Shown here piece by piece: positions 7,303 through 37,277 of a DNA stretch of 64,000 bases (position 1 is the stretch's first letter; each line of letters opens with the position of its first letter). A program made the translations under genes and the position numbers. The stretch covers positions 186,001 through 250,000 of the forward strand of contig QPGO01000050.1 of the NCBI GenBank assembly GCA_008632985.1, written 5' to 3'. The notes beneath the pieces are model-generated. The model was not told the DNA's origin. It was given only the letters and a program-made list of their open reading frames with translations, and did not search any database. The DNA is from Psammoneis japonica. Lineage: Eukaryota.

Positions 7303-8400
7303 TGCAGTCAAAGCTGGAAAGTGCAAGTGTGCTGTCATTCATGATCAAGCAGAGAACAAATGCTGTCCTCCAGCTCAGCACAAAAACATGCCACCAGAAC
7401 TTTGCAAAAAGCTTTGCTCCTCACTCCATGGCACATGTGGGGACATGGGCAAGGACAAGTCATCTAAGTCTGGCAAGCCCAATGATGCATGAAGGATTTG
7501 CACAAGCTGGCCAAGATGATGGCTGCAGCTTTCGCTGCCAAGGTTGACAGACAGGCAGGTGCAATGTGAGCAGCAAACCCAATGAGGAAGAACCCACAAA
7601 GCCACCAGCAACAAAGCAGCACAGTTGCAGCACATTTGCTCTGATTCTCAGCACATTTCAAAGCACAAGAAAAAGGGACAATGCTCATCCTTGGGCTCCA
7701 ACAGGACATTTCATCTCAGCTCACTCCAAACAAGTTGTCTCAGCCAGACAATGATGTGTCTGAGGCAGCACAGATTGAGTTGCAAACTGAGATGGATGGC
7801 CATGCTGACACAAGTGTGCTGGGAAAGCATTCCATGATTGTGCTTGATCATTGGCATGCAGTCAAAGCTGAAAAGTGCAAGTGTGCAGTCATTCACAATG
7901 ACCAAGTGGAGGACAAATGCTGTCCTCCAGCTCAGCACAAAAACATGCCACCAGAATTTTGCAAAAAGCTTTGCTCCTCACTCCATGGCACATGTGGGGA
8001 CATGGGCAAGGACAAGTCATCTGAGTCTGGCAAGCCCAATGATGCATCAAGGATTTGCACAAGCTGGCCAACATGATGGCTCTGCAGCTTTTGCTGCCAA
8101 GGTTGACAGACAGGCAGATGCAATCTGAGCAGCAAACCCAATGTGGAAGAACCCACAAAGCCACCAGCAACAAAGCAGCACAGTCACAGCAACTTTGCTC
8201 TGATTTTTGGCACTTTTCAAAGCACAAGAAAAAGGAACAATGCTCATCCTTGGGCTCCAACAGGACATTTCATCTCACTTTGCTCCAAATGTGTTGTCTC
8301 AGACAATGTGTCTGAGGCAGCACACAGATTGAGCTGCAAACTGAGATGGATGGCTGTGCTGACACAAGTGTGCTGTGAAAGCATTCCATGGTTGTGCTTT
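7303..8400. repeat. Direct tandem repeat, 2 copies, ~554-bp period
   Basis: tgcagtcaaagctg...tgtcctccagctcagcacaaaaacatgccaccagaa starts at 7303 and 7857. Confidence 0.92.
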
Positions 8401-11400
8401 GTCATGAGCATCCTGCAGATGCAGTGGGGTGTTGTTCTGGCTGTTTGTTGTTTGCCACAGCTCCTCCAAACTAGAGCAACAAGATGCCAGCCTTTCTGAT
8501 GAGAGATGAGATGCTTGAGGTCATGACACCTTGAAACATGCATTTTCTCCCTGCAGCAAACAAGTCAAGAATGGGAGTCTGGCAAATGTGTGGTGTCAAC
8601 ACTTTTGTCATGTGAATTGTCCAAGGGACTTGGGGGTGATTCTGTGTTCCGTGTGCCATGGGAAATGCACAACATTCTGTGGTCGAAACACATGGCCAAC
8701 ATTTGCATCCAGAGCACCACCTTGGTTCATTTTGGTGCATGAGACTGAAGGTTTTTCTCTGGCAACAGATGCATGTTAACAAAGGGCATCAACAGGAGAC
8801 AGTTCAGCATTTTGCTTTTGCAGACTTGTTCTCTAGAATGAAAGAAAATTGTGGAGCCACTGTTGCAAGCAACACATTCTGGTGCACCATGTTTTTCATC
8901 GCAGCTTTGGAATCATGCGGCACGTGGCAACATCATGCATCTTTCTCACGCTCCTTTTTTTGACACTTCACATTGTGGGAACAACTCTTGTGGCTCTCAT
9001 TTTGTTCATCAAACTTGCCCTCTGGCAAGTGCATGAACACAAAGGAACAATCCACATCCAGCAGACTGGACAATTCTTTGCAAAACTCAGGCAGACATCC
9101 TGGCCATGCTGCCTCAACCAAATGGTGGGCTCAGACAGGACGGCCAAGGTCAACACTGACAGCCATGAATTGACACAATTGAGTCACAAGCCAAGTGCAT
9201 GTTCCAAAATGCACAAAAATCCAGACCACCCTCAACCAGCAATGTGTCACACAACTCCTCCAGATTGCAGCAGAGAAGCCATCAATTCCTTGCCCTGGCA
9301 ATGTGCAAACACACCTTGGTGGTGTGATGCCAACACCTGGAACATGCTGAGCATGCAGCGGTGACATTGGACAGCTTTTCAAAAATTTGTGGTTTTAGTT
9401 CAGAAGGACATGTCCATCATGCTGGCAGGCAGCCACACTTTGTTGTTTTGGTCAGAATGCACTTGACAACCAGGCCCAGCAGCGCAGCATGCTGCGCTGC
9501 AGGGGTGGAATTGCAGTCATGTTGTCAAATTTCACAGGAACTCCTCCCAGCTGTGCAATGATGAGATGACAGTGAATGTCTTCATGCCCAATGCATTGAG
9601 GGGTGCCAGTTTCCAAGTCTGCCATGGCAATGTCATCCAAGGTGCTGTGACACTGAGAGACTCTCTCCCTCATTGATTGTTTTTGACAAAATCAGCAAAA
9701 CTGTTAAAACAAGCAAGATGGGTGTGCTCTTGCTGAACATGTGTCATTCCAGTGTTGATTCCAGCAACTGGCTGCAAACCATTCTTGAGCACCTTGACTG
9801 TGCTTGCAATGATTCCAGAGGAAAGAGATTGCCAACTGCCCTGTTGTTGGAAACAACCAAATTGCCGGCAGAAAAAGTTCTGAAAATGCAACAGGGTGCA
9901 TGTCCACAAACCAAATGTTTGTCTCCTTGAATTGCAGGTGTCAAAAGTGAGCATTGCACATTGTCTTGCATGTGCCTTGTGGCCAAGACAAGCCAAGTGA
10001 CAAACAAAGGGTGGTCCCTCCATGTTGTCAATGTCAGTCAAGACTCAGCCATGTTGGTGAAAGACAAGTGAGTGGTTGCTCACAATGTTTGTGGTTCACT
10101 CCCATTCCACCTTGTTTTGATGCCAAATCACACCAGCCAGGACAACTTTTTTGTTCTTGTCAGCAAGAGCCAGGTTTTCTGCTGTTGGTTGGTTGTGCTC
10201 AATCTTGAATGGATTGAGGTCTGATGCCCACTTGTGAAACAATCCATCCTTGCACTTGTCCTTGAATCTGCTGGTGTGGTGTTCACATCAACACCAGCGA
10301 ATCACATTGTCAACAGAGGAAAAATCTTTTTCAATCCCGCACATCGTGCAAGTGCAAAATGTGCAGATGAGTTCACAAACAAGGGCTCAATGTCATCAAA
10401 CCCATGAAAACCAGTCCCATGCAATGACATGACCAGGGCATGTTCCCAAGTGTCTTGTGGAGCTGACTCGAGCTCATTCTTGTCAATCCAACACAGCTCC
10501 AGGTGCACTTCTTTGTTTGATTGGAGTGCGATGTCTAGCCAAAATCAGAGCCAGCAAAACTGAAACCATTGGTGCGTCAAGTTGGAGACACAAAGGCTGC
10601 AGACAATGGCTTGAGTCAAAAAATTTTGGTTGCTGCAGAAAGAGCAGAACATTGCCATGCTGGTGCCAAATTTTCTCATTCATGGTGTCATTGCCAGTGA
10701 TGCAAAATCAATCTGATGCTTTCTCTTTCATTTGCCTCTGCTGGGGGGGTGCCTTGGGATCACATGTTGCACCCCAGTGAAAACACAGTTGCATCACCTG
10801 AAACACACACTTCTTGATGATCTTGGCCAACTCCCATGTGGCCATGGCCTTGATCTCATTCAGCAGTCATGCATTGATTTCCATTGGATGTGTGAGCAGC
10901 TTTCTTCCACAAAAGCTTGTGTGGATGTTGGCAATGTCGACACACAATGGAGTCAAGAGGTGCCAAACTTCCAATCCTAAAAGGCTGTGAGGCACCAAAC
11001 TTCCCATCCCAAAAGGCCATCTACAATGTGTGACACCCAAATGTCACTGCAATTGTGAAACATCAAAAGACTGGTTGTCTCCATGAGCCACAAGTTGCCA
11101 TCAATGATCAATCCTCCTGGTCTGCCGCACTTAAAAGTTGACACTTGCAGCTTGTCTGACTTCAAAATGTTGGTCCAAGCAATGGCTGACTTCCAGTGCT
11201 GCCAGTCAGCAAGACCTCAATTGTTTTGAAATTCAAATTTCTTCCTGCACCAGGTTGTCATTCCTTTGGATTTGTGTTTGCCCAAGAGATGAGACAAAGT
11301 GTGGCATCCAGCATTGATCATTGTCTGCAAAAACCATGCAGTCCAGTGGCTCTCTTTTTTTTTGAGTTTGTTGATGTGCACAAATCGCAAAAAGGAGTGC

Positions 11401-14400
11401 CAATTCATTTTGTTGTGAACCAGCATGACTGACAAAGGCAGGACACCTGGCTTCAGGGAGGCTGACTGCTGCCAATGTCTAAAACTCACAACCATTTCTT
11501 CAACCTCATTTCTTTTCTCAGCGATGTTGTTGACCACATGAACCTCCTCAAGCTGCCATCCAAACAGTCTTGTTTGATTCTGCAAGAAGATCAACTGATC
11601 CTTGAGAAGAAATGTGTGTTCTCAACAAACCAGTGCAATGCAGAGTGTCAGGACAAGTCTGCTGTGGGGATCAAGATCCAAGTCATGCTGCAGATGTGAC
11701 TCTCTTGTCTCTGGTGAGACAGAAGCCAATGTTGAGGTGAGTTTTGAGTGCTTGCACTTGCAGATCCATTCTGGCATGTGTCCGATGCAGTTGGCTCCCA
11801 ACAGCTCAAGCATCTGGTGCATGCAATCATGATCTGTTGCCTTGAGCAGCAACCAGCCATTGACACTGCAGGTGAAGTCCTTTTGAAGTGTGTGCCTCAG
11901 CAAATGCAACTTGAAAGTGTGAGGACAGTTGCATTGCCGCGAATTGGTTTGCATCTCCTGGCAAGGCAGAATTCACTTCTGCATGTTCCAGGTGTTGGCT
12001 TGGTCCATTTTCCAACAGAGGGGCTGTGGGTGCACCAGACACCATCAGTGCACTTGTTGTCAATGATTTGCAGTGCACTTGCCACATGAAGTTTGTTGTC
12101 TTTGTCAAGAACCACCACCAGGTTGTTTGGCTGAGCTGTTGTGTCCACAAGCACAAACACCCAGAAATTTGCACCTCCAGAACCAAGATGTGCTGTGGAG
12201 CACAAACAAACAGGCAGCAGCATGTGCCCTGGTGCCACAACTTCTTCTGGGGTCTTTAACGCAAATTGCAGGTCAGACTTGTCTCCACTGTTGGGTGGCA
12301 GTGTGAACTCAACAAGGGCATCCCCCCTGGAGAGACCAACAAAACCACCGAGTCTTGCCAAAGCATCATCAAACAGCCAAATGGCTGTCTTTTCAGCACA
12401 TGTCAGGGTCAACATTAAAAAAGGGAATCACTGCACAAATGTGATTGCAGACGGCTTGGGGGCAGATGGTGGGACGAGACCTGGGAAACTTGATTGGCTT
12501 CCCGATGTTGAGAGAAATGGGCAGTCCTGGATCAGTGTTCAACATCATGAATCTGTTGGAGCTGCTGGATGGAATGCTGTCCAAGATGAAGGTTTACAAT
12601 GTCTTCAGATTGCTGGGATGAGACTCCATTTTGACCAGCTTTCAATGCCAGCCAGTCCATCAAATCTTGTGCTGAGCCACATGATTCATCTGGCACAGCT
12701 TTTTGGCACAGGGTGCAACCAGTTTTGTTTGGTTGCTTGCATGAAGCGTGCTGGCCCTCAGGGCATGTTTCACCCCTTTCTGGCTTTTTAATTGAAGTCA
12801 CTCTAGTGCCGCCACACACAGCACATGTTGAGAGGACTGAACAGCAGTTGGTCGGCAAGACTGCAGTTTGGGTCGGACTTGCTTTCTGGTGGTCAATTCA
12901 TGATGACAACTGTAATTTGCTGCAAGCAAGAAAGCCTGACTTTGCAAAAAACTCATCTTTCAAGTCTTCCATGTCCTTCCACTGCTTCATTGGAGAGCTG
13001 GCAGAGCAGACTTCAAACACGATGAAGAGGCGTTCAATCGACCATCCTGAAACCTGCACAATGTGGGACAACCACATTGTGACATCTTCAAGGAAGACAT
13101 GTTTGTGCTCCATCTTTAAAAGCTCAATGCTCATGAAAATTGCAGCATCAATGATGGACGTTCCTGCTGCCCCACACTGCCAGGTGGTGACCTCTGGATG
13201 ATGATTGAACGGGCCTTCTTGGTCATCTGAATCCACAACTTCTGCTTCTGGAATCCAACAGGATGTTTCAAAACACTGTTGCTGATGCCCCTGTGGCAAA
13301 GCTCTGGGAGCAACAAAAACATTGGAGCCAAGGAGGGGACCAACTGGGACCCTGCTCAACTGCTGCTGGCCCGCTTGTGGATGCCATGGATGGCTCTGGA
13401 GTTGAAGACAATGATGACGAAGCTGAAAAAGTGCCCTGATGTTGAGAGATGCCAGCGGAGACAAATCCTCTTTGTTTCCCATCTCCATCACTTTGAGCAC
13501 AGATTTGAGAATGCCTTTGCCATCTGTTGTTGGCTGACCTCTTGGGGGCTTCCCATCTGGAATCGCAGCATGTGAGGGAGGCGCAACATTGTTTGGCAGC
13601 ACCACTTCAGCATGAGTTGGTGGCATGGCATCAGCCACATTGCCTGCATCATGACAATGTGGCTGTGCATGGGGATGGCTCAAGACATTGCCAACCATTC
13701 ATTTTGTGGCACAGACACAACTCAACAGGAGTCATTTGAAAATGTCACAAGAGTCACAATTGGCATTTTGCACAAGGAAAAATGCCAAATCGTGTGGAAA
13801 TGTGCACAATGTCATGCGAGAGGGTGATCAGAGCTAGTGACTTTTTGGGAACTCAATTGACATGTCATCTGACCAAAGGCATTTTGATTTGCATGGTGAA
13901 GAGCAACACCTTTGGTCAGACAACATTTCAATTGATTTCCTGAGAAGTTGACATTCGAGTGCGGATGGGTGGACAGACTGAAAACAATTGTTTCTGGTGC
14001 TCTTCTGCACAATTTCCACGCAATGACTCTGAGAGCCACAATGATTCCCACCGTCCTTGCCCAAAATTTTGACTTTGCGCAGTGATGCCATCTGATCAAG
14101 ATCTGCGCGCACACTGCTCAAGTCCTGGACATGTTTGATTGTCCATCCATGGCGCCCAATTGACAGATGAACAAATCAAGCCTCACACGTGAGTTCCTCA
14201 GTTGCTCAATCTGGACCCTGCCATTCATGATGGTGGTGGCAATGATGAGCCCCCCCTCCCTCTGACTGTGCATGACAGAGTGGTGCAGCACCACAAGGTT
14301 CATCAGAAGCAGAAGCAGTTCTGGCAACTTGTGGTGTGGGCTTGGGAAGAGCAGGCAGCACTGCCAAGATCTCTGGGTTGGTCAACTCCGTGTCAGGCAG

Positions 14401-14565
14401 GAATCAGTGGAGTCCAGTCCATGCTGGCAGTTGCCACCACAGGCACTGACTTTGACATTGGCGTTCCAGCTGCACCTCTGACAGGAGCTTTTGCAACCAA
14501 ATTGTCAATCATTCACACAGCTGAGTTGATGGACTTTCAGCTTCCACCAACACACACAACCCTCA

Positions 14566-15678
14566 GCTGTTCAATGCCAAGAAGGCGCACTTGGAGCAGG
14601 CACTGGCAGTGCTGTTTTGGAAGGTAAAATCTCTAGAGAATTGACAGCATGCACTTGGAGTTGATGCCAGAGTGTCTGTGTTATCCTGCTGTTGCATCAA
14701 ATTGGCATTTTTTTTGCAGTTGGGCCAAAAGAAGCAACTTGACAGAGCAAACTCTAGAGGAGGTTTTTGTGAACAAAAAATGTGCAGAAGCAGTGCCATG
14801 ATGTGTGGCCCAAAAAGAACAACACGTTGTTTCCTCGTGGACAACTGTCACTTGCTTGAGGAAGTGTGAAATAAAATGCATTTTAAAGTTGCAGCATGTG
14901 TGTTTTGTGCATGTCAAACAAACATTTTCAACCCTCATCTGTTCATCATGTTTATGATCGCTGTCCCAAGGGGACCATCTCCTGGTTGTTGGTGTGCCAC
15001 AGTCAAGTGGTGAGCACTGTTTTTGAGTGTGATGGGAGTGATGATTTTGCAATGGATTTGCAATCACTTCACTGTGGAATTTGGAAGTTTTTTCAGTGTG
15101 TTTGCAACTCAGAAGAGATGCAGAATCCCACCAGAGTGGAGGTGACTGAGCACCTGGATCCAGTGGAACAGAACCTGTGGCACACAATGCTGGGATGTCA
15201 TTCAGGATGGGTGCAATCCAGCAGATTTCTTGAGTGAGAATGAACTTTCAATGTTGGTGAATGACATGGACTGCTCATGGGAGGACACTGAAGTGCATCT
15301 CATGGCAGAGCTGGAACAGAATTGGGAGCTGTTCGATGCTGAGGCACACCTGAAGCAGGCACTGGCAGTGCTGTTTTGGAAGGTGAAATCCCTGGAGAAT
15401 TGACAGCGTGCACTTGGAATTGGTGCCAGAGCATGATCCATGTCATCCTGCCATTGCATCAAATTGGCATTTTACACCGCAGTTGGGCCAAAAGAAGCAA
15501 TTCAATGGAGTGAACTCCAGAGGAGATTTTTGTGAACAAAAAACATGCAGAAGCAGCGCCATGATGTGGGGCCCAAAATGAATGACACGGTGTTTCCTCA
15601 TGGACAATCATCGCTTGCCGGAGGAAGTGTGAAACTTCATGTGTTTTGTGCATGTCAAACAAACATTTTCAACCCTCA
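14566..15678. repeat. Direct repeat, 2 copies of ~350-370 bp (14566-14936 and 15328-15678)
   Basis: Both copies share gcaggcactggcagtgctgttttggaagg and catgtcaaacaaacattttcaaccctca. Confidence 0.9.
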
Positions 15679-18600
15679 GAGATCATGCAGAGACTGGCAA
15701 GGCACCCAGCCGGCTGCAGCCAATGCCCAATGCACTGCAATCTGAGATCCGCAATGGCACACCTGCCGCAGGGACATTTGTGTCCCTGACCTGCTGGCAA
15801 ATGGCCATGCAACAAATTCACGCAGGAGCTCTGCTGCAACAACATGCTGCAGCCTGTTGGCTCTGTTGGATCTGAGTTTGCTTGTGACAAAAAACAATGA
15901 CAAGACATGAACTCACAAGCAACACAGCATTTCCTTTTTTTCAAGAAACAGCACCAGAAAATGAGCAGCAGTCAATGCTGCACAGACCAAGGTGGCATTT
16001 GCACAAATGCACAGTTTTTGCAAGATGCGCCAAACAAGCTTCTCAGAGTTCATTTGGGAGAGCTTCAAGGTCAGTTGCGACAGCTGCTGAGCCCTGCAAT
16101 GTCCATTGAAGGTTGGGTTTGCAATGCCATGACAACAAGATTGTCAAAACATGCAACACATCACTGGAGTCTTTCTGACTCCTCAAAACAGAATTCCACC
16201 ACAACCAGTGCTCACTTGAAAAAGGTTTTTGGATGGTCAAAGAAGCATGCCAAGCAATGTTGACATGATTCAGCCTTGCATTTGTCTTCTGTGTTTGTCT
16301 TGTGCACAAATGCAAAGTTGCACTTTGCTGAGCTGCCGGTGCACCTGGACATGGCACAAAGGAAAAGTGAGTGCTGGTGCTGCCAGAGTGCACACAAAGT
16401 CTTTCATCTGGCAAGAAATGCGGTGCATTGGTGTGAAGAACAATGCAGAAAAGGAGAAAGTTGGTGCCAGTGTGCTGGCTGTGGGTCAAGACCAAGTTGA
16501 CAAGCAGGGCTCATCAGCTTTGCAGAAAAATGCACTCAGCAACAGAAAGCATGCTGTGGGGGAAGCCAGCCAAAAAATGAAACAAACAAACAAACAAACA
16601 AACAAATGAGAAATGAAGGAAAAATGCATTGTGTGCAAAGTCTCAATGATGTCCTCCTTGGCAGTGGAGTCAAAGTCAAGTTGCAAGGATGGCAGCAACC
16701 ACAATGCAAGCACCATTGTGACACTGGTGCACTCCACACTTTTTGATTTGAACCCAACTTTTCAGTTGGCTGTTGTGGTGCCATGAGATGAATTCCTTGT
16801 GACTGTGTTGGTTGCCTTGACAACCAAAAGAAATCACTCTGCTCAGTCACTCTGCTTGGCAGCATCAATTCCTGTGCAGCAGCAACCACACAGCGTGCTC
16901 CTGCAAAGGAGTTGCACAAATTGTGGCCAACCTTTGAGGAGCTGGGTGATGCCAAGTCACTCTCAAACATGCACCAGCAACACCAAGAAGGTTTGGGTGG
17001 TGCACAAATCTGTGCTGCATGTTTTGACTGACCAAGTTGCTGCACAAACCATTGCCAGCCATGCTGCATCATTCTGTGATTCAGAGGAAGGGGTTTTGTC
17101 TGCTTTGGTGGGACGAACTTCCCCACAAAGCACAGAAAATGCTGTGTGGAAATGTGGATCTACCAACAAAGGTCAAACCTGTCACTTTGCAAAGGATCAT
17201 GTTTGAGTCATGCTTCAAGGGCTGCAGGATGGAGGAGGAGTTTGAGAAAGGGGCTCTTCTTTGAATGTCCAAAAGCACTGCACCTGGATCCAGAACATGC
17301 CCCATGCTTTGTGTGGAGTGCACTGCCAGAGTCAAGCTCTTGAAAGCAACCAAACAAGTGTGGGACATTTCCCCCTGAGGCTTCAGGATGCTCTTTTCTC
17401 TTTTTTCACAATCTGGGCTCCTTCTTCTTTGCCTTGGGAATCTCAATTTTGCAAACAACAGACACTTGCCACTCAGCCACAGGCCAACTTTTTTGCCTCA
17501 CATTTGTTGCTTCAAGGACACCAACTCAACCACTGAGCATCATTGGCAGGCAGTGCAGGGCCATGGCTTGAGTCAAAGATCTGTCTGCCACACACATGAG
17601 AGCAATGCAATGGCTGGTTGTTGACCAAATTGTGCAACACGGCACAGCCATTTTTGTTGCACCTTCTTGAGATGCCAAAGCTGCCAGAGGGCTCCAAGCA
17701 AATGCTTCAATCTAACTGCCATGAAATTTCATTGTTGGGTTCAATGGTGGTCACTTCTTTTCCAGCTGGCCGCTGGCAGGCATGCTCTTTCCAAACAACT
17801 TGCGGCTGCTGTTGGTTTCCACAGTCTTGTTGTTGACAGCTCAACGTGAGATGCAATGTTGTCTCTGAACTAAAAGTCGCCAGCATGATGAGGAGCACTT
17901 CTTGCAACAAAAACGTGAGGGTGTCATTCTTTCCTCCCAACAAGAAGTGTGCAGAGGGGCCACTCATGGGCAAGTTGGTGTCAGAAAATGACAACACATT
18001 TCCCTCCAGCAACAGGAGTTTCTTGTCAAGGATGCCAAACAAGAACTTGAGCAGCTCTTGAAAGACCACAAAGAGTCCCAAGCCAAGCAGGCACATTTTA
18101 AGAAACAAGATCATGATTCCAAGGTCCGGTGAAACATCAGTGGGACATGGAGAATGCAGCTGATGCAATGGGCCGGCAACCCAAAGGAGTGTTAAACCTG
18201 CAGGTGATCAGACATGTTGAGATGCTCAATGAGCAACTCAAGTGGTCTGAACCACCTTGCAACCTTCACAAAAAGGCTGCTCTTTGGGCATCAAGCAGGC
18301 CATCTCAGCCCATGATGTCAACAGGTGTTCAGCAGTGTGCATTTAAAAAGAAAAGAAAGCAGAGGCTGGCCCTCATGTGGCTCCTGCTTGAACAACCATT
18401 GCACTAAAAAGTGCGCTGGTTGGCAACAGGTTGCTGCCGCATTGGATGTTTACAAGCATTCAGTGCACATGCAAGAAGCAAGTTTGCTGGCAATTGTGGT
18501 GCATCTCTGTCAGAGCCATGGACTGCTTTGACATGCAATTGTCATTTTGCCTCAAACTGACTTCCAAAGACACACACAATCAAGTGCACAGAAAAAAAAT

Positions 18601-20884
18601 CAAGGACCCAAGCCTTCAGGTCTGCGCGGCAATTGTGTGTGGATGACATTCAAAGACTCAACTCCAGCAGATCTGACTTGCAGTGAGAACAAGAAGATCC
18701 ACTCTCTTTCAGCCACAAACTGACAAAACCATGGCAATCAAGAGAGTGATGTGTTTCAAAGAGTTGAGCTGTGATTTTTTTGTGATCCATGCAACATTGA
18801 GCAAACTGATTCTGAACCTGCACTGCCCCTGATTGACATTTCAAATTTTGAAAATGTGGCAGGAAAACCAACGGTTTGTCGCTGTCACATTTTGTGTGCT
18901 TTGCAATTCAAACCCCAATGATGTCAGTCAGATTTCAGAACAGGGTGAGCTCCAAACTCCATGGTTTTCTTCCCTCCACCACACTGTGAATGCCCACCAT
19001 GCACTTCAACACAAACAACAAGACATGCAATGCAACAATCATGCCATCTGCCATTGCTTCCAAGAGGAAAAGAAACAATGCGGTGCATTGTGTGTTGGAA
19101 GCACAACAAGCAAACACATCACACACCAACAAAGAGAGGACTCACGTTCTCTGAAACTAAAGTGCTCAGAAGTGGCAGCATGGAGTGGGGCCACACAGAG
19201 ACTGCAGAAGGTTGCATGCAAGGTCTGCAGGACTGTTTGCCAACAACACAATGGTTGTTGTCATTTGCTGCCAAGTTGGGCACTGCATCACTTGGTCAAA
19301 CAACAACGTTGACTTTAAAGAGTGTGAAGCTTGAAAGCATTGTGGGTGCAAGACATTCAATCAAATTGTTGCTGTTTTTTGTCTGGCTTCAGAGAATGCC
19401 AAGGTGGACTGCTCAGTGTGTTGCTCAGAGAAGAGTCAGTTTCTGTGAGAGAAAAGGGATGAGCAGTTCTTGAGACATTGGACCAGTGCCAGATTTTCAG
19501 CGGCAGTGCAATTCTGCATGAGAAAAACGAATGTTGCTGATGACTGCAACCACGCGACAATGGAGCAAGTGGAAGTGCAATGTGCCAAAACACTGTCCCT
19601 GCAAAATGGTCTTGGAACACATCAAAGATTGCTTTGGGACAATTCAAGCAGGGTGCTGTGATGGTTGGTCAAAGCTCATGAGGGATGCAGGCACCTCAGT
19701 CATCTCCAAGTTCAGTGTCTGCATGGTGTTTGGTGTCAGAATCTACAGTTTTGTCAGCAGGGAGCCCGCAGCAGCTCAGGTTGACAACTCGCAGAGTGTT
19801 GCACATTTTGAAATCAAGGTGCACAGGTGTTGAGGTGAAACCAAAGAAATCACAAGCGCAAGAGGGCGCCGCGGCTGCAAACTGTCTGCCAAAAGCACAG
19901 GAAGCTTGTGCCATGAGTTGGAGAATCATCATCATGAGCCACAAGAAGAAAGACATGGCCTGACTGCAAAACTGCTCTGCAATGTTCACTTCTTGTGCTT
20001 TTGCAAAATGCAAAGGAAAACCAGTTGTGTCTGTCAATCTTGATTTGATCAAGGCAAGGGTGACAAGCTGGTGAGTCACGAATGGAAAGGTGTGACAAAA
20101 AAACCAAGCGCTGGCATTTTTTGCAGCCACCTTCAAGAAGCAACTGAAACTCAACTGCAGCACAGCCCCTCTGCCTTGCGCACTCTGAAAAGTTGAGCCC
20201 AGAAATGAAGGCATTTTTGCCACTGTGAAAGCAGTGGGAAAGTTGTCCAGTTGCCCAGTTCCTGAGGTGCAGTCCACCAGGGCACACCAACATTCATGCC
20301 AAGCACCTCAACTTGTTGCACCCTTGAGAGCCTGCCTTTTTAATTGCCTCTTGGAAAGAGACTGTTTTGAAATTGGCTTTTGCAAAAGCAAGAAAAAGCA
20401 CTCTTCAAAGAATTCAAAAGAACAAGTCTGAGTCTGAAACTCACATTTGTCCTGGCACTTTGTGTCCACCACAGCCCTTGGAGAGCCCAACAATCCTGAG
20501 AGTGTGGAAAGTGGAAATTTGTTTCAATGTAAGAGACTCATGCTTTTGGTTGGAGTTTTGAGTTCAGGACACAAAGCTTTGCTTGTTGGAGTGGTGTTGC
20601 CTGGGACACACGGCATTTTGTCGCCAATTGCGACATTCCCATAAATGAATTGGACGATTTGTCGTGAAAAACGCCCTTTGAGACAAATTTCAACCGTTGG
20701 CGATAAATAAGACAAAATCATCATTTAATTGGCGATGGCGTGTCCTAAACACACACGTTATATCAACTACAGTGCTATATGATGAATTTAACTTTCGGCG
20801 AAGACTGTACTTATAAATTAATGTTTTGGCGATTTTGTCGTACGTACGACAAATTTTGTCGGACGTACGACAAATTTTGTCGTA

Positions 20885-20992
20885 TCCGACAAACCCCGAC
20901 AAGCCCCGACAAACCCCGACAAGCCCCGACAAACCCCGACAACGTACGACAAACGCCGACAAGAGCCGACAAGAGCCGACAAACGCCGACAG
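20885..20992 (+). repeat. 10-bp tandem array (CCCCGACAAR-type) inside the MITE
   Basis: About 10 units of the form ccccgacaaa / agccgacaag. Confidence 0.9.
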
Positions 20993-21268
20993 ACGGACGT
21001 TTGCGACATACCGATAACGCAACGCTCCCCAACATTCAGAAGTGCCCAGTCGTACTGATAAAAGGTACAGTACAGCAATACATACCGGTACATTCCGTTG
21101 CACTATGTAGAAGTGTACGATGTTGTCCCGGTATTGACGAGAGTATGGAGACCGCCGAGAGCGGCATGATCGTCGCTTTGCATCATCGCGCAAAAGAGAC
21201 ATACCGGTAGTGTCAACGGAGACGTTAGCGGTTAGCGTGTGCGGGGGGCGTGGGTGTTTCGTTCGTGA

Positions 21269-21356
21269 GTCGTCGTGTCGTGACGTGTCGTGTCGTGTCT
21301 TGTCGTGTCGTGTCGTGTCGTGTCGTGTCTTGTCGTGTCGTGTCGTGTCTTGTCGT
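21269..21356 (+). repeat. (TGTCG)n 5-bp tandem array inside the MITE
   Basis: tgtcgtgtcgtgtcttgtcg... repeated about 17 times. Confidence 0.9.
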
Positions 21357-22669
21357 ATGCCGATTTGTCGGATGTCCGACAAAATTTGTCGGCTACGACA
21401 AATTTTGTCGTATACGACAAATTTTGTCGGATGAATTTTCGTCGATGACATCGTTCGCCAAATTCTGTTAATTACCCCACTTATTGAAACGACATCGCCA
21501 AAGTTCAGGTTGGTTATAAATGACATTAATCATTTTATAACTTAATTTTAAACAATGTTTCTGTCCCATTTATCGCCAACCCGGACATTTTGTCGCAATT
21601 CGCGTCTTTTCGCGACAAATCATCAATTCATTTAAGAAAATGTCGCCAAATGCGACAAAATGCCGTGTGTCCCTGGGGCACTGCAGGGGCTGTTGTTGGG
21701 CATCAGCACCAGCGACCCAATGAGGTGGGAACGAACACACCACAACAGAACAAGCAAGTGTCCCACTTTACAAGGCTGTCCTGCACTTGAGCAAACTCAT
21801 GGATGGGTGCTGGCAGGGAGTGGTGCCAAATCAGCTCCTCATTTGTGCACATGTGATGCATGTGCACCATGTCTCCAGATGCTCTCAGCTTCATTTTGCC
21901 AGCCACTCTCTGCCATTGAAGCCAGAGCAGTGCCCAACCACAACTTGAGTGAGGTTGAACAACCAAGTGAGCAACAAGTCATTCAGCTGCACATGTTGTT
22001 GCATCTGACACTAAGTTGCCACCTCACCACCTTTCAGGGCTCAACACACTGCAAGACAATTCCAGACACAACTTGAGCACAAAGCAACAAACTGCCACAT
22101 GCTTTTGCTCTTCTTCCAAACAGGTCTTGGCAACGGGGTTGCACATTGCTTTCAAGGTTCAAGCAAGGAGTCAGTGAAACATGGTGAACACAGACTGCAC
22201 AATGTGAGGGACAGTGGAGACAACACAACAAACCTGCACAGCTTGAAGTCATTTCCAGAAAATCCCATGATGAGCAGCCAGAGCAACAATGTGTGGGTCA
22301 TGCATGGCAGAAGTGCAAAAAAGGCAGTCATTTTGCTGTTTGGACAAACAGCCTGCAAACAATTTGCAGCAACATGAAATGAGAGAAGATGAAATTAATC
22401 CCCCCAGTGGCACAGCCAAATGAATTTGTTCTGGCACTTGCAGAGAAGCACACAATGAGCACCCGGGCTTTGGGACAAACAAAGGGTGCCAGTTTCTATG
22501 AGGACAGCCAGCAGCAAAGATGAGGCATGGCAAGAGAGATCTTGCAGTCACCTGTGCATTGTGCTGCAATGGCTGAGAGGTTGTTCAAAAATGTTGAGGG
22601 CAAAGCAGCTGCTGATGATAAAGCCTGTCACTCAGCTGGGAAGCAAGTCACCACATGCAATGTGTTTTT

Positions 22670-25600
22670 GTGCTCAACAAGAAGATCAATGAGAACAAGA
22701 AATGAAATTTTTTACACCTGTGATGCATTCTCCACACAGCGGTGCCATGGTTTTTCAGAAATCAACTGATGCAGTCACTGCCACTTGAGCTCCGAACAAT
22801 GGCTTCCCACTGCCTCATTTTTGGTCCAAATCTGGCATTGCCAAAGTCATTGTTCAGGTTGACAGCTGTTTTTTCGATGGTCACAGATTTGCAACATTTT
22901 GTTTTGTGGTGCAACATGTTGTGTTTTTGCAAGAGCTTCAACTCAGTTGCCTGTTGCACGTCATTTTTTGTGTTTTGGCTGCACCTGCTGTCTCTTTTTG
23001 TTGAACAAACACCACACAACTCAGCTGCTGACATGCTGTTTGGCTGGTGCATGACAGTGGTGCACCCATCCTTGTCACACATCTGACAACAACAAATGAA
23101 AAAACTCTCCTGAAAAAAACTTTCCATCAAACCAAGCCCATTTTGACAGACAGCACAGTTGTGAGCTTGAATCCTTTCCTTCTGCCCAGCATCAATTTGA
23201 TCCTGTCATGACTCCTCATGCTTTCTGTTGCCACAAATGCTCATCAAATGATTTGACCTCATCATCACATCACAATTTGACAAATTCCAACATGCTCATC
23301 AACCCAGATTACAGCATGGTTCAATCTGAGCTTCATTCAGCACTGCTTTCAAGCAGTTGTTTAATGACAAACATGCTGCAAACACTTTTTGAGGTGCCAA
23401 GTCATTGGGGCTGACATGGTTGCAGCCCAGAGCTTTGTGTTTTTGTTTTTGCCCATGCCTGCACACTGCACTCCATTTTTGCTGTTGCAGCAGATTTTTG
23501 CTGGTGAGTGCCAAATTGCATCTCCACTGTCTGTGCAGCTCTTCCTCATTGCTCTGTGAATGCACCAGTTTTGCATCTTGCAGAAGGTTGCAGAGGGTCA
23601 TTTTTGGAAGCTTCACTTGTTGAAGTGCTGGCATCAATTTGCTTGCATCAGAGAGAAAGGCAAAAACATTCCCAGTGTGCCCAAGAACTCTGGGACCCAG
23701 GCTGTGCAAATGGCAGTTGCAGTTGAGGCTTCTTTGATCAGAGAAAACTTGCTTCACATTGGAGCTTTGTGCAAAGGTTGGTGCAGATGATCAAGCCACA
23801 TTGCAACAACTGCATTGCCAACAAGATTTGCCATGAAGATTTGCTTGACAACTTGCAGCAGGAAAACTTGACAAGGCTGTGCAAGCTTCCAAAAATGATG
23901 ACTGTGGCACACAATCAATGGAGGTGAGCTCATCTTCACATTTCTGACTCATGTCCCAACCAATCCTCCCACAAGATTCATTCTTGCCTGGGCATGGGAT
24001 CAGAGTGAAACAGAAGACGGCTCACTCTTTCATCACAGTTCTCCATTGTTTCCAACTTCCAACTCATCCTTTTTGCTTCGCAAGTGTCATGTGGTCCTCT
24101 TGAGCATCCAAAGAAAGCATTTGAGCTGTTGCTTGAGCACATGAGAGCACCAAAGGTGTGAAAATCATCCCAGCCACTCTGTTCCTTTTTCCAGACCTTG
24201 TCTGCATCTTTGGGCAGCTGATGAGCCACTGTGGCAAGAAGCAATGTCATGCACAAGGTGCAAAAATGACTTGCAAAACAAAGCATCAGCAAGCGCTGCC
24301 AGCAAGAAACTCACAGAAAACAACAAAGGAGCAAGTGGGTGGTGATTGCAGAGCAGCACCTGAGAATGTTGTGCTCTGATGTTGAGAAAGCCCTCACATG
24401 CTTTTGACAGCAAAAGCACTCAACAAATTCTTCTCAAAGAGCTTTTTCTTACAACCCAAAACCCACATCCTCTGGCAATTTTCTTTGCTTTGTGAAAATG
24501 GAAACAATGGCTTCTGGTTGCTGCTGCTTGCCATTTTCTCACTCTTCTTGCTGCTGCTGCTGCTGCTTGCCATTTTCTTCTTCTTCTTGCTGCTGCTGCT
24601 GCTGCCATGTGAAGGTGTTGTTTTGTGCATGTGCATGACAAGTTTGTCGCCAAAGGTGCTGCTGCATGCAACAAGCTTTTGATGAGCAGTCAGCATGGAA
24701 AAGCTGTTTGACAGTTCTGTGAAGCCAAGTGACAACTGCAGCACCATGAGAAGGATGCACCACAAGAAGATCAATGAGAACAAGAATTGATTTTTTTGCA
24801 CTTGTGATGCACTTTCCACACAGGTGTTGTGGTTTTGCACAATGTCAGCTGATGTGGTCACCCCACCATTTAAAAATTCTGAACAATCACATTGTCATGT
24901 TTTGCCACCGGCTCATTTTCAGTGGCAAACCTGGCATTGCCAAAGTCATCATTCAGGTTGACAGCCAATTTTCCCAATGACCACAGATTTGCAGCACTTT
25001 GTTTTGGGGTGCAGCATCTCATTTTTGGAAGAGCTTCAGCTCAGTTGCTGTTGCATGTTTTTTTGCTGTTCTGGCCGCACCTGTCTCTTTTTGTTGCACC
25101 AGACCACACCATGCACAGCTCAGCTGTCAATGCACTGTTTGGTGCATGACAATGGTGCACCCCCCATCCTTGTTGCACATGTGACAACAAGGAAAAGACT
25201 CACCCTCTGAAAGAAGCCCCTCATTGAACCAAGCCCCTTTTGACAAACAGCACAGTTGTGAGCTTGAATCCTTTTTCTGTCCAGCAGTGCCAGTTTGACC
25301 CTGTCATTGCATGCATTTCCTGCTGCCACAAATGCTTGTCAGCCAATTTGACTTCATCATCACACCACAATTTGACATCACCCCAGATTGCAGCATGGGA
25401 CAATCTGCACTTCATTCAGCACTGCTCTCAAGCTGTCCATTGGCATTTGGGAGCCTCCAAAAAGATGGCTGTGTCATGCCATCAACAGAGCTCAACTTCA
25501 CATTTTTGACTCATGTCCCAGCCAGTCCTCCCACAAGATCCACTCTTGCCTCTGCTTGAGATCAGAATGAAAATGGAGAACAGCTTGGTCAACTCATCCT

Positions 25601-27540
25601 TCTGCTTTGTGAGTGTCATGTGGTCCTCTTGAGCATCCAAGAAAAGCATTTGAGCTGCTGCTTGAGCCTGTTAGAACATCAAAGGCATGCCAAGAACATC
25701 ACCCCAGCCTCTCCACTTTTTCCCCTGTGTGCTGTGTCTGCACTTTTGGGCAACTCATGAGCCACACTGTGGCAAGAAGCAATGGCATCCACAAGGTGCA
25801 AAAATGACTTGCAAAGCAGAACATCAGCAAGCACCGCCCAGCAAGAAAGTCACAACAAACAACAGAGGAGCTTGTCAGTGATTGCAAAGCAGCACCCAAG
25901 AGTGTTGCACTCTGATGTTGAGAAAGCCCTCACATGCTTGGACAAAAGCACTCAACAAATGATTCTCAATGAGCTCTTTTCATGACCCAAAACCCATGTC
26001 CTCTGGCAATTTTTTGTGAAATGGAAGTGAGGGTTTCCTCTGGTTGCTGCTGCTGCTTGCCATTTTTCTTCCAGCTGCTGCTGCTGCTGCTGCCACCATG
26101 CAGAGGAGCTGTCTTGTGCCCACACATGCCAAAATTGTTCCTGAAGGTGCTGCTCTGGCTGCACAACAAGCTTTTGACAACAAGCCAGTGCCAAGAAGCC
26201 ATTTGACAGCTCAACAAAGCCAAGTGGCTGACAACTGCAGCACAATGAGAAGGATCCACCACAAAATCAACAAGAACAAGAAATGAAATTTTTGCACCTG
26301 CAATGCACTCTCCACACAGGTGTGATGGTTTCTCAAAAATCAACTGATGCGGTCACCACACTGTTTGAATTCTGAACTTTTTGATCACAGGTCTGACATT
26401 GCCAAAGTCATCACTCAGTTTGGCAGCTGCTTTTTCCAATGGCCGCAGATTTGCAACATTTTGTTTTGTGGTGCAGCCTCTTGTTTTTAGAAAAGCTTCA
26501 ACCCAGTTGCCCGCTGAATGTTTTTTTTTAAGTTTTGGCTGCTTCTGTCTCTTTTTCCTTTAGCTGCATCAGACACCACACAACTCAGATGGCTGATCCA
26601 CTGTTTGCATGACAATCATGTGCTTTCTCCTTGTCACACATCTGACAACAAGGAAAAACTCTCCTTCCAAAAGAAACTTCTCGTTGAACCAAGCCCCTTT
26701 TGACAGACAGCGCAGTTTTGACCTTGAATCCTTTCCTTCTGTCTGGCGCCAATTTGACCCTGTCATCATGTGCACTTCATGTTGCCACAAATGCTTGTCA
26801 ACTAATTTGACCTCATCATCACATTGCCGCTTGACAAATTCTGACATCGCCAGATTGCAGCGCAGGTCAATCTGCACTTCTTTCAGCACTGCTCTCAAGC
26901 TGTCAATTGGCACTTCCCATGTGGTCCTTTTGAGCGTCCAAGGAAAGCATTTGAGCTGCTGCTTGAGCCTGCAAGAACATCAAAGGTGTGCCAAAAATGT
27001 CATTCCAGCCACTTCACTCCTTTTCCCATGCCTCGTCTGCATCTTTGGGCAGCTGATGAGCCTCTGTGTCAAGAAGCAATGGCACCCACAAGGTGCAAAA
27101 ATGACTTGCAAAGCAAAGCATCAGCAAGGGCCACCAGCACAAATCTAAAAAAAGGAGCATGTGGATGATTGCAGAGCAGTGCACAAGGGCGCTGTGCTCT
27201 GATGTTGAGAAAGCCCTCTCATGCTTGCGCAAGAGCACTCAACAAATTCTTTTCAGCAAGCTTTTTGCATGACCCAAAACCCATGTCCTCGGGCAATTTT
27301 CCTTGCTTTGTGAAATGGAGACAAATGCTTCCAGTTGCTGCTGCTTGCTGTTTTCTTTTTGCTCTTGCTGCTTCTGCCACACAGAGGTGTTGTCTTGTGG
27401 CCACACATGCCAAGGTTGTTTCCAAAGGTGTGCTGCCACATGCAACAAGCTTTTGACAAGGGCGCAGCACAAAGAAGCCATTTGACAGCTCAACAAAGCC
27501 AAGTGACAACTGCGGCATTGAGAGAATGATCCACTGCAAA
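22670..27540. repeat. Degenerate tandem array, ~3 units of ~1.5 kb
   Basis: Landmarks recur: atcaatgagaacaagaa-like at ~22685/24770/26266; tgtggtcctcttgagcatccaa-like at ~24090/25619/26919; tctgatgttgagaaagccctc at ~24375/25911/27198. The first unit carries a ~570-bp insertion. Confidence 0.88.
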
Positions 27541-27645
27541 GGCAGTGCCGCTGCACAAGGTCTCCCATCTTTCATGATTTTGGTCGAAGTTGTTGGTGCA
27601 CTGCACTGCACAACATGTGTGCCAGCAGTCTTTCCACCGGATGTT

Positions 27646-27646
<1 letters not shown>

Positions 27647-27678
<32 letters not shown>

Positions 27679-27807
27679 NNNNNNNNNNNNNNNNNNNNNN
27701 NNNNNNNNNNNNNNNNNNNNNNNNNNNNNNNNNNNNNNNNNNNNNNNNNNNNNNNNNNNNNNNNNNNNNNNNNNNNNNNNNNNNNNNNNNNNNNNNNNNN
27801 NNNNNNN

Positions 27808-27839
<32 letters not shown>

Positions 27840-27846
27840 CACACAC
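27647..27846. repeat. (CA)n microsatellite spanning an assembly gap (N at 27679-27807)
   Basis: Pure CA runs on both sides of 129 Ns. Confidence 0.95.
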
Positions 27847-28204
27847 TCTCACTGAAATGGCTGCACAACATTTTGTCAACATGCTCCAATGTGGCAGAAA
27901 CAGACAACTTGACAGAGGTGCGCTGCTCTTCCCACACTCCTTCAAGACAATTCATGGACCTTGGGGTCCTTGTGCTGTTGAGTGGGAAGCTCAGCTCTGC
28001 TCATGTTGGGAGAAAGGTGATGCCGGGTCACAAAGCCACAACACCAACAAGGAGGCATGGGGTCACAACACCACCCCAAGATCAACCTTGCACAGTGTGC
28101 TTGGCCACAATTGTCAAAGTGTTGCCTGGAGCCCACTGGATGCCACCAGTGCCCTCAGCTTCTTGCCATCGTTGGGTTTGTTGGTGCTGTCATGCTGCTG
28201 GTGT

Positions 28205-28720
28205 CCACCCCAAGTCTCGGAGCCGCCGGCTCAGCTGCCCCAGGTCCCGCAGCAGCCGGCTCAGCTGCCCCAAGGTCTGCAGCAGCTGGCTCAGCCACCC
28301 CAAGTCCCGCGGCAGCCGGCGCAGCCACCCCAAGTCCAACAGCAGCTTGCCCCAGGTCGGCAGCCTCAGCCGCAGCCCCAGCAGGAGCCCCGGCAGCAGC
28401 AGCAGCAGCATTGTGGGCCAGTGCTGGCATTTCACAGCACCGCAAGCAACCATCGCAGTGCAAGGAGGCGCCACATTGATGTTGCGCCCGGCCAGCAGCA
28501 GCAGCAGCAGCAGGGGCAAGTTCCGGCACCACTGCAGCAGGTTCCTGGCCAACAGCAGCAGCAGGGGCAGGTTCCGTCACCTTCGCAGCAGGTTTCTTGC
28601 CAACAGCAGCAACAGGCACAGGCTCTGGCTCAACAGCAGCAACAGGGGCAGTTCCACCTGCTGCTGCCACAGCCACAGGAGCAGCTTCAGGTGCTGCTGC
28701 AAGCAGAGCTTCAGCGGGCT
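28205..28720 (+). repeat. 30-bp tandem repeat (28205-28347) followed by CAG-rich low-complexity sequence
   Basis: gccggctcagctgccccaggtcccgcagca-like unit about 5 times, then (CAG)n runs. Confidence 0.8.
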
Positions 28721-28984
28721 TCAGATGCTGTGGTGGGGTTTGCATCACAGTGCAACATCTCTGGCTGCAGATTGCTTTTGTCACTGTCTGTGCCATTTCC
28801 CTGTTTTCTGCAGTGGCAATGTTTGTTGCTGTGCAAATGTGCAGCACCATTGAAGACTGTTTTGACATTGTGACAAAGAACAATTGAAAGCTGTTTTGAC
28901 AATTGCGACAAATGCACAAGTGGCAGGGAAATGAAAAATCTGTTGCTTTAGAATGTTGTCCATTGTTCTAAAACACAGTGTCAC

Positions 28985-29940
28985 AGCATCTGTGAACATC
29001 AAACAATGGATTGCCATTTTCAAGCTCCAGCTCTGTGATCACAGCCACTGCTGTGAACACATTTTGGTGTCTTTTGACTCAATGACAAAAGACACGGTTC
29101 AAGCAACTCCACTGCTTGAACCTGTTGTTTGCAGCTTCATGGCAAGCTCAAACCCATCCATGAAGTTGGCCACCATCCTGTTCAGGAACACTGCAGAGAG
29201 GGTGGCCCCTGCACCCCAGATTGGCTGCAACCCTCTCACCATCATCAAGGCAGTGTGCAAGAGCACTTTTGAAAATGTTGATGTCTGGACACTGGCCACA
29301 TGGAAACTTTCCATAAATCCAGACAATGTCTCCTGTCACAATGTTCATGGCAACCTCTCATCTGACTCCAGGCTTCTTGAATTTGTGCAAAAACTGGCCT
29401 TTCCAAAAAGGCTTCCAACCACAAATGCAGAAGATGGTGCCATCAACCAACACCAAGCATGTGTTGCCCATGCCCCCTTGAAAATGATTTTCCCACACAA
29501 TCTGGAGCAAAGTAACTCAGTGATGAGAGCCAACAAAGTGAAAGAGCAACAAAATCCCGCATTTCTAATGTTGCTTGATGTGCACTCACCCCACAGCAAA
29601 TTGCAGATTGCAGATCACAGCAACAAATGTCCAACTCCACTTGCGAAATGTTTTTTTGTCAACTGCGTTGGTTGCACTGGCAAGTGAGCAAAAATCTGAC
29701 TCAGAGCACAGCAGAGCTTCAGCGACATCATCAGCACCCACGGAGGAGAGGTGAGCCGCTGATGCACCACGTTCCATCTTTGCAACTGGGTCCATCATTG
29801 TCCACAACAAGGCACAACAGATCTCAGGTCATGTCCCAAACATTGCCTGAAACCATGTCACATCTGATGCGTGTGCAAACACGGTTGAGCACCGCATCAG
29901 TGCCTTTCCCTCAGAAAGGAAAGTTGTTGCTGCTGTGTGC
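28985..29940 (-). mobile_element. Decayed DDE transposase (DDE_Tnp_4-like; Harbinger/ISL2EU-related)
   Basis: Translated remnants FQAMFG, DKKTFRKWSW, CLVLVDGT, HKFKKPGVR*EVAMNIVTGDIVWIYGKFPCG, GERVAANLGCRG (expected ADxGYRG) and NPLFDV; broken by stops and frameshifts. Family assigned by motif recognition only. Confidence 0.72.
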
Positions 29941-31832
29941 ATGACAAAGAGGCAGTGCGTTGTCAGCCAATGTCAACAACGCCACTGCTTCTGCCTCCTT
30001 GCTCTCTGTGACATTTGGAGAGAGCAGATTGCGGCATCATGGTTGTTGGGATCGTGGCACAGAAATGGTGGGTGCGGGTGAGCTGAGATGCTTCAGAAAG
30101 ATGCGGTGACATGCGACATTGTGTTGCTCAAAGGTGAGCTTCAAAGTGAGCTTCGAAGAAACTTCGAAGCATCTCTTTAATGCCGCCAGCTCTCTCTAGA
30201 GCAGCTGGCACCCAAAATCTAGTCTAGCCACCAGCTGGAGCCAGCCACCACTGGCAGCTGGAGCAGCCACCACTCTGCTCCTAGAGCAGAGAGCTGGTGC
30301 TGCAGCAGACAGCATGAACAGACACCGTCAATGTCAAACGTACAGTGCCGTGTGCCCAAGAACGTGCGTGCATGTCCAAAACACGTAGAAGTGCCGTGTG
30401 TGCGAACCCACAGGTGCGCATCGCATGGTTGGGGACACGGAAGCAATGCCGGATGCGATCAGTGCGGCAGCATGGCACTGCAGAAGAGAGGCGCAGGCGA
30501 AGAACAGAAGCAGTCCAATCATCATCCCTCACCACCATCACATCAAAACCCAATTGAAGAGACAGTTGCTGATGCGATTGCATTCACACTGGATTTGGCA
30601 CGACCATTGCAGCCAGTGCAATGTCTCGTCGCCCAGCTGCAGAGCCTCCCGATGATGCTGACGCGAACAATGGACGATCTGTGTGTCAACGAGCGTCGAC
30701 ACCTCCTCCAGGTCTAATTGCCACGGAAGATGCGCCCGGTGATCTTTTTCCCATTGGAAAACTGGCAGCAAGTCCACTTGAAGCTCGAGGTGAAGTCAGC
30801 AACGGCTCTCGGTTGATCTCAGGCTTAGAGACATTTGTTGCCGACTTGCACCGCACCCCCCGGTGGTTCATTGAACTCAGCGATGTCGATGACACAGAGG
30901 CAAGCCCTCGTTGTGGTGTCATGCTGGTGGTGACTCCAATCACAACAAACCCAGAGGACTGCACCCTCACCAACATGACAACGGACCAAGAGGGCCGTGT
31001 CCTTGTGGTGAACGTGACCGTCTGTCCACGCCGCATCAGTGGCAATGCTCCCCAATGGTTTGGAGATGAACTGGAGAGAACTTCTTCAGCAATCCCACAA
31101 GGCGACAGATGTCGGGACAGGACCGGCACCTTTCAACCTTCCAGAGTCAGCAAAGACTGCTGGCAGACTGCCTGGTCCAATCAAATTGGCAGGCACATCT
31201 CTGCTGATGCAAACATTTGTGCAACAATGGAAGATTTGACCAAGAGGCGTGGTTGGGTTCGCTCAGATGGCACTCGCATTTGATTGACAAATTTGAACAA
31301 CATGCGTCCCCACGATCGAAATGGCAGCAACCAATGGTTCATGTTGATGCAGCTCTGGACCAACACCAGAAACCTTGTGACAAATGTCTGACAGAAACCT
31401 GCAGCAGGACCAAACCATGGAACAGAGTTTGTTGGCCAGTCATTTCCGAGTCTTGGTTTCTGGCTAAATCCAGGTCTCTTCTTGCATGTGTCCCAAAGTT
31501 TGTGTCCCTCCACTCTGGCCAGCTAGTCACTCTAGAGCAGCCAGCTAGAGAGAGCAGCTAGCCCCTTCTCGTTGCGATGTGATTTCATGTAAAAAAGAGG
31601 AAAAAGCCCAAGTTTCTCGGAAAAGTGGTTGACAATGCAGCCGCACGAATAAAAGGCAGTTGTCGCGCGCAATTTCGCAGGCTGTGCGCGCGAAGTTCGA
31701 ATTGATTCTGGTGCCGTGTCCAGCATGATGGCGGGTTTTTGTTGTCTTCCACTGGGCGCAGTGTCAACAGTCTTTGTGGATGGTCAGTTGGTGTGCTGTC
31801 GGGTGGGTGGAGGTCGATTGAATCGGGGTCCT

Positions 31833-36690: not shown

Positions 36691-37277
36691 GTGACGGACA
36701 CGAGCAAATGATCTTGTTGGAACTGGTCTGCATGCCACATCATCATCACTGTCATGTGTTGGATGAGGGTCTCAGCAGTGCACACATGTCAAGCATTGGC
36801 AAACAAGGAGACACTGGATGTGTTCGATTTACATTTCTTTCGTTTCCTCATCCGCCGCCTTGGTATCTTCGACAATGAGTTTTCCCGATTCTGTGTTCCC
36901 TTTTCCTTCTAGCTGTTGGTTGTGCTCCTCTTGCACTACAAGGGCGGCATTTCTCACCAGTTCGTAACGGTTGGCTACACCCAGAGCAGCCGCCGAGGCT
37001 TGAGAATCACCAGGCACAACGTCAGTAGTCGATGCATGCCTCGATTGCAAGAAGAACCCTGGATCCAAACCAGCCGCGGCGGCACGAGCTTGGTGTGCAA
37101 TCAAAACATCTTTTGACGACAGTGCTCCATTTTCTTGTCCATTGGAAGATGCAACTCGCCGCAAAGCCGTCAGCAGTTGCTGTGAAAGGTGGACCGTTCG
37201 GAAGCTTCAAAACAAACCCGTTCCATGCGATTGAACTTACTCAGCACTTGAGCCATTGCTCGCCCGTCGGCTGTTGC
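36691..37277 (-). pseudogene. TAF11-like pseudogene, copy 1 (internal ~350-bp deletion, TpA-mutated)
   Basis: Aligns to 37328-37800 and then to 38156-38249. Confidence 0.7.

Follow-up and report, generated by a model that had tools for sequence, protein, structure and literature searches.

A non-autonomous CWG-flanked element, probably inserted late into a TA-converted block of a diatom genome, and the course of TpA conversion in its sister copies

It is very probable that the 1069-bp element at 20604..21672 was inserted late into an already converted block of DNA and that the element exerts no lasting protection. The window, that is the whole stretch of 64,000 nucleotides of Psammoneis japonica that was analysed, consists of ordinary DNA alternating with blocks in which the observed/expected ratio (O/E) is about 0.04 for TA, 0.1-0.5 for CG and about 1.9 for CA/TG. 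One protein of the window has its best cluster matches mostly in Bacillariophyta, in line with a diatom host; a second protein was uninformative. In a genome sample of 39 ten-kb stretches at arbitrary hand-picked coordinates, 40% of 778 bins of 500 bp had a TA O/E below 0.2 and the distribution was bimodal. The features of the element and of the block around it are as follows.

6200..20600, no strand assigned: depleted block, left part; TA O/E 0.04, CG 0.14, CA/TG 1.87
20601..20603, forward strand: target duplication, left copy, CTG
20604..21672, no strand assigned: non-autonomous, MITE-like element with terminal inverted repeats (TIRs); 1069 bp, TA and CG intact
20604..20624, forward strand: left TIR, 21-bp perfect part; imperfect match to about 20728; first 38 bp TA-free
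20832..21005, forward strand: left internal array; palindromic TTTGTCG/CGACAAA units and a 10-bp tandem repeat
21006..21247, no strand assigned: non-repetitive core, crossed by frames of 153 and 278 aa
21248..21431, forward strand: right internal array; 5-bp GTGTC-type tandem repeat and palindromic TTTGTCG/CGACAAA units
21652..21672, reverse strand: right TIR, 21-bp perfect part; imperfect match from about 21548
21673..21675, forward strand: target duplication, right copy, CTG
21676..36700, no strand assigned: depleted block, right part; TA O/E 0.04 to 29900; CG partly kept at about 28200-33900

The sequence-only reading had placed a TIR-bounded element of 1069 bp here, and its coordinates proved exact, with 21-bp perfect TIRs and CTG on both sides; the two motifs it had quoted were located at 20839 and 21064. 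Beyond the perfect 21 bp, the inverted repeats match at about 78% over about 125 bp. Both internal arrays are built from GACAA-type units, and the left one, which varies in length from copy to copy, may hold transposase-binding sites. The 153-aa and 278-aa frames over the arrays gave no Pfam match and the element no Rfam match, so that no coding capacity was recognised; together with the TIRs, the target duplication and dispersed copies of similar size, this is what is expected of a MITE.

The same reading had described a flip of composition at the TIRs, from an element full of TA and CG to flanks in which both are erased. The contrast was confirmed: the element holds 54 TA (O/E 0.69) and 102 CG (O/E 1.82), against 3.0 and 8.7 expected per 1069 bp from the block, while the adjoining 1069 bp hold 3 TA and 11 CG on one side and 6 TA and 5 CG on the other, and no 1069-bp window of the depleted block exceeds 8 TA or 27 CG. 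Its terms were too strong, the TA level of the element being about ordinary for the genome (0.59 in undepleted DNA) and not enriched, and the flanks being strongly depleted, not erased. The TA nearest the left end of the element lie at 20530 (outside) and 20642 (inside), those nearest its right end at 21633 (inside) and 21769 (outside); the element is by far the largest TA-rich island within 6200-36600.

The window copy (L001) has lost 0/43 TA and 1/54 CpG and shows 3 differences in 718 aligned columns from its nearest pristine sisters (L004 and L005), whereas about 87% of the CpG has been lost in the flanking 4 kb (CG O/E 0.13). These figures bear out the earlier suggestion that the insertion followed the mutation of the block. 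Flank CpG would have taken about 2 hits each if the start was 0.98, as against 0.10 at most for the element; this CpG clock gives the flanks an exposure at least about 20 times that of the element, provided that their original CG level was the usual one of the genome. The flanks are only 64-80% like their relatives elsewhere in the genome; of 24 TA in one TA-normal relative, 16 appear as CA or TG in the window and not one survives there. A paralogous empty site was sought at the 12 loci that match the flanks, but none of these extends across the junction. The contigs of sequencing run X1, which cannot prove the absence of an empty allele, show no joint skipping the element either; recency is therefore not shown by polymorphism. 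These contigs contain both junctions, and over about 4 kb of flank they depart from the assembly at 8 positions; should assembly and X1 represent two haplotypes, the insertion would be older than their separation. Two TA-to-CA differences between assembly and X1 flanks, at 19744 and 22619, were set aside as proof of ongoing conversion, as an ordinary reverse C>T fits them equally.

It is hardly credible that the element was misassembled into this position or that the TA loss is a basecalling error. Two sisters (L002 and L006) abut N gaps, the target copies of a third (L011) are unequal, and X1, the library of which is not on record, possibly comes from the sample behind the assembly; its contigs drop rare variants, and runs X2 and X3 contributed almost no coverage. 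Against an artefact, the X1 contigs cover both flanks at a depth of 64-70 with 1-2 differences per contig and reach 24 and 25 bases into the TIRs, which is under the 31-base bridging rule. Matching target duplications in 21 of the 22 readable copies, a rare CCG pair included (P 5e-6 under random pairing), argue against chimeric joins. The sequence-only reading had also used the intact element as an argument against a domain-wide basecalling artefact, and this argument gained from the sisters, in which conversion is graded and polar, unlike the behaviour of a basecaller, and from the agreement of the X1 contigs.

A similarity search of the 91.4-Mb assembly, in which the best 40 of 63 candidates were scored, yielded at least 23 full-length copies (76-100% identity, 1028-1288 bp), besides split and truncated ones; the exact 21-mer of the TIR has 61 genomic matches and its reversed control 0. 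Target duplications of the 23 full-length copies were 13 CAG, 7 CTG, 1 CCG, 1 unequal and 1 unreadable. The CTG duplication had been taken to fit the CWG targets of some Harbinger elements. The CWG preference held, with CWG/CWG pairs in 20/23 copies; the assignment did not, since in the accessible text of Han et al. (PMC4482050) a CWG duplication defines NuwaI (PHIS) and PIF/Harbinger proper has TWA, of which no case was seen here. According to the same text, NuwaI has TIRs of 12-61 bp, usually starting with GGG, and is reported from 16 animal genomes only. The TIR of the element, 21 bp in its perfect part, lies within this length and starts with GGA after the CWG if the duplication is 3 bp; a 1-bp duplication of the W inside CWG, with a TIR starting with GGG, is the same sequence and indistinguishable. 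No autonomous partner with its own transposase and these TIRs was found in the genome with TIR patterns 21 and 11 bases long and two degenerate ones of 15 bases, unpaired ends being fetched as well; screening was extended to 23 PF13359 loci and to five wider stretches, none of which matches the element, and the genome searches made gave no partner with DDE and Myb/SANT, as NuwaI would have. The element thus works like a PHIS-type non-autonomous element and cannot be filed as NuwaI, because no autonomous partner was found. With MITE/Tourist-like elements, as described in the accessible part of PMC12595863, it shares a non-coding, TIR-bounded, multi-copy nature and a frequent position close to genes; it differs in its length of 1.0-1.3 kb, in tens and not hundreds of copies, and in its CWG target in place of TWA or TA.

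Longer copies of the family (L033, C214:64755-69199; L034, C217:29826-34840; L041, C21 about 512700-517900) contain nested inserts, with a DUF7869 frame, a DDE_3 frame with a second ORF, and a Pfam-blank transposase-like frame. Distinct related elements with GGACA-type ends and CWG flanks occur at L125:7830-8672, L127:958, L128:8637 and L036:1065, which suggests that more than one family may use the same transposase. An unbroken 475-aa DDE_Tnp_4 frame (L133:4509-5933, C13), in TA-normal DNA and with no clear TIRs, is probably a young or domesticated Harbinger-type gene. At C107:144631-147024 (L020/L040), the right end of a copy and its flank are duplicated about 1.4 kb downstream, the duplicates differing at TA sites. 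A TIR look-alike with TATA on C216, which lies inside an ORF and has no match to the element, and three matches from a metagenome scan (one bare 19-mer, without CWG or further likeness) were attributed to chance.

To describe the conversion, a state was taken as ancestral when at least 8 of the 9 TA-rich copies agreed on it; this covered 718 columns, tandem arrays being left out. Nine of the 23 full-length copies scored keep 41-43 of 43 TA sites and the other 14 keep 2-21. A>G changes affected 443/1953 A after T and 85/7148 other A, and C>T changes 84/2431 C in CG and 29/4523 other C, counts which, due to the kinship of the copies, exceed the number of independent events. The A>G/T>C changes are thus largely confined to TpA, as in hypermutation of the type described from Bigelowiella natans. 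Both CA and TG outcomes were present at 34 of the 42 listed TA sites among the 14 converted copies, and double hits (CG) were rare, which fixes the direction, with TA ancestral: each TA site is converted a single time, on one strand or the other, and becomes TG or CA. Conversion depended on the base 3' of the edited A (C 0.62 > T 0.46 > G 0.35 > A 0.28); genome-wide, the best-surviving TA context is TTAA (0.47 of normal density) and ATAT stands at 0.007. The TA nearest the right TIR lies in the resistant TTAA context and was kept in 14/14 converted copies. No same-strand runs of conversion were detected (217 observed, 221 expected), which rules out same-strand processivity, and the WA motif of a polymerase-eta-type enzyme fits poorly, as A after A changed at only 55/3073 positions. 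At element offset 933-934 (21536-21537), several pristine copies have CA and one (L009) has TG, so that source copies may carry one conversion and still transpose.

The sequence-only reading had proposed to compare TA loss among genome-wide copies with their age and location. Over the 23 copies, TA loss was correlated with CpG loss (rho 0.92) and ran 8-37 times faster (hit ratio, 14 converted copies). Location mattered as well. The ten copies scored inside depleted DNA had 80-100% of their non-TTAA sites converted over the whole length, ends included, so that neither the TIRs nor the arrays protect. Four copies on a border (L008, L010, L011 and L016) were converted from the silent side, three of them facing one way and one the other, with 4/56 sites converted in the gene-side part and 94/118 elsewhere; the same end regions of copies inside depleted DNA were converted at 87/102 and 36/45 non-TTAA sites. 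Split copies L034, L035 and L039 lean toward the same silent-side polarity. A counter-example is L025/L044, a border copy beside a gene, which is converted right to its gene-side edge. Position therefore governs conversion, which ends a few hundred bases short of undepleted gene-side DNA. The bimodal genome sample and the polar border copies show it to be regional and to spare genes, as in B. natans. The polar copies further indicate that the neighbourhood, and not duplication, sets the target, unlike in RIP, and point to a possible guidance by chromatin.

Lasting protection, either by protein bound to TIRs and internal arrays or by the element acting as a boundary, had been offered as an alternative to late insertion and is very unlikely. 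What speaks for it is the placement of the copies: none of 21 scorable copies lies between two undepleted flanks, as 36% of random CWG sites do, and 7/21 sit on a border against 5.9% of random CWG sites (500-bp flanks; two further copies fall next to N gaps); in three border copies, conversion also stops approximately at the left internal array. On the other hand, 14/23 full-length copies have lost half or more of their TA, with conversion running through TIR-proximal DNA and both arrays and survivors mostly at TTAA sites, and L010 was converted straight across the left array. With a null that allows for element length, the border excess is reduced to P 0.035, the neighbour of one of the seven border copies (L023) is another young insert and not a gene, and insertion near genes is usual for MITEs in the accessible part of PMC12595863. 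From this analysis, the excess would be the usual liking of MITEs for gene edges plus selection, and not the work of an insulator. The longest predicted ORF points away from the element in 8/10 border copies (P 0.055), which was taken as a hint only of a preference for promoter sides.

Gene conversion, by which an old, converted insertion would have been overwritten from a pristine sister, is highly improbable. Near-identical donors exist and the composition switches sharply at both ends; no converted remnant is left at either end (0/43 sites), L001, L003 and L009 would each need a full-length event, and plain insertion explains the same data.

A delayed or on-off conversion is a refinement compatible with late insertion, possible and on balance rather doubtful. 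Here, a CpG-rich insert would remain unsilenced for a time, or the mutator would be off in the old block, and conversion would then be fast, the window copy being not much younger than some half-converted sisters. Among the 23 copies none was 5%-50% converted, a range in which a steady process would spend about 13 times longer than below 5%. Private transversions or non-CpG C>T numbered 9 in nine pristine copies and 21 in nine converted copies of the same subfamily, yet TA changes numbered 4 and 288 and CpG changes 2 and 46; the non-TA clock thus separates the two groups poorly. The window copy, with 2 private transversions and 1 CpG change, carries more than the half-converted L010, which has lost 22/44 TA with 0 private transversions and 0 non-CpG C>T; the slow process that had been considered finds no support in this copy, and the episodic one named with it may apply. 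In B. natans, the main region was mutated in only 11 of 15 lines, as given in the accessible text of Mettrop et al. (10.64898/2026.01.13.699255). Against a delay, a very recent burst of transposition leaves the same gap, only the 40 best of the 63 candidates were scored, and a floor of error or heterozygosity of about 1 change per 700 bp would explain the private changes; assembly and X1 differ at about this rate in unique flanks too, and the private base of the window copy at 21454 is in 0/12 X1 contigs, which is not proof of error. The roughly one private change per pristine copy is either such error or haplotype noise or a sign that conversion starts after a delay.

Under late insertion, a transposase made elsewhere (not found) would have moved a TA-intact source copy of this non-autonomous, CWG-targeting TIR family into the block by a recent cut-and-paste event. 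The insert would take on the silent, CpG-methylated state of the block, spreading from the latter, and a locally recruited adenine deaminase would turn A into inosine, read as G, with the preference T-A-C > T-A-T > T-A-G > T-A-A. This enzyme would convert the window copy like its sisters, the exposure of the window copy so far probably having been too short. For the TA step, an adenine deaminase is somewhat favoured, an error-prone polymerase is unlikely and a modified-base route is distinctly unlikely. TadA prefers T-A-pyrimidine. This preference was not confirmed in the accessible part of PMC10661471. The genome has 5 matches to PF14437, none of which was singled out as editor candidate. In one of them (L141, C79), the deaminase-domain match shares a frame with a second domain. 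By eye, we take the five to be TadA-, ADAT2- and dCMP-deaminase-type proteins and this fusion, the partner of which is presumably a 2-oxoglutarate oxygenase. More tentatively, and with some doubt, the diatom might possess a chromatin-guided DNA adenine editor that comes on at an insert only after silencing, erases most TA faster than one or two ordinary mutations arise per 700 bp and comes to a stop a few hundred bases short of active genes; the CWG family would be fitted to it by its TA-free ends, by a target that conversion makes commoner and by source copies surviving beside promoters.

Fungal RIP is likewise a dinucleotide-specific, near-saturating mutation of repeat DNA. RIP changes C to T at CpA, making TA from CA, across the whole duplicated segment. 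The direction here is the opposite, with TA lost and CA/TG gained, same-strand runs are absent, and repeated DNA is spared on the gene side, so that duplication alone does not set the target. The closest known case is the integrated viral DNA of B. natans, in which, according to the accessible text of Mettrop et al. (10.64898/2026.01.13.699255), A:T changes to G:C almost only at TpA, at about 1000 times the background rate in 11/15 lines, with 124 small clusters besides two viral regions, and an ADAT2-like deaminase is proposed, not shown. As far as that text goes, both organisms share the change of TpA to TpG or CpA, its regional nature, silent or foreign DNA as target, and enrichment of TE-type genes among TpA-poor sequences. 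The present case differs in the host, a diatom, in the extent (about 40% of the 778 sampled 500-bp bins), in conversion near completion and coupled to CpG loss, and in a 3' base preference and a gene-side boundary, although supplements of that paper may bear on flanking bases; rates given here are relative and not per generation. No diatom report of TpA hypermutation was found in the literature searched, which subscription papers mostly lie outside. The element thus joins a known kind of TIR element, and the TpA process is a variant of one described once.

The insertion itself is ordinary, and its value is that of a dated probe, one sequence in 23 places, from which one can read the direction and context of a TpA mutator, its relative speed and the rule of position that it follows. 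This mutator shapes about 40% of the sampled genome and, within the literature searched, is in print only for one unrelated alga. In L001, L003 and L009, which are pristine inside converted blocks, new conversions should show first, and this can be tested in culture; if the reading of a chromatin-guided editor is true, pristine copies would be ready-made reporters of the editor at work.

Additional sequences were recognised in the window. Converted DNA adjoining the element (19364-20541 and 21741-22091) includes decayed copies of host-type sequences: a gene for a membrane protein, with L047 as relative, a family of genes for proteins with an ADP-ribosyltransferase domain, with L048, L049 and L052 as relatives, and the 3' end region of a gene like that for glycyl-tRNA synthetase (L058); the blocks are therefore not made of transposons only. 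A decayed tandem repeat with units of about 1.5 kb and 73-77% identity occupies 22671-27540 of the depleted block. Within 28200-33900, where TA is gone and about half of the CG kept, retroelement-like frames form a younger layer in the older block. The ordinary DNA of the window includes divergent histone H4 and H3 genes at 55113-56218.
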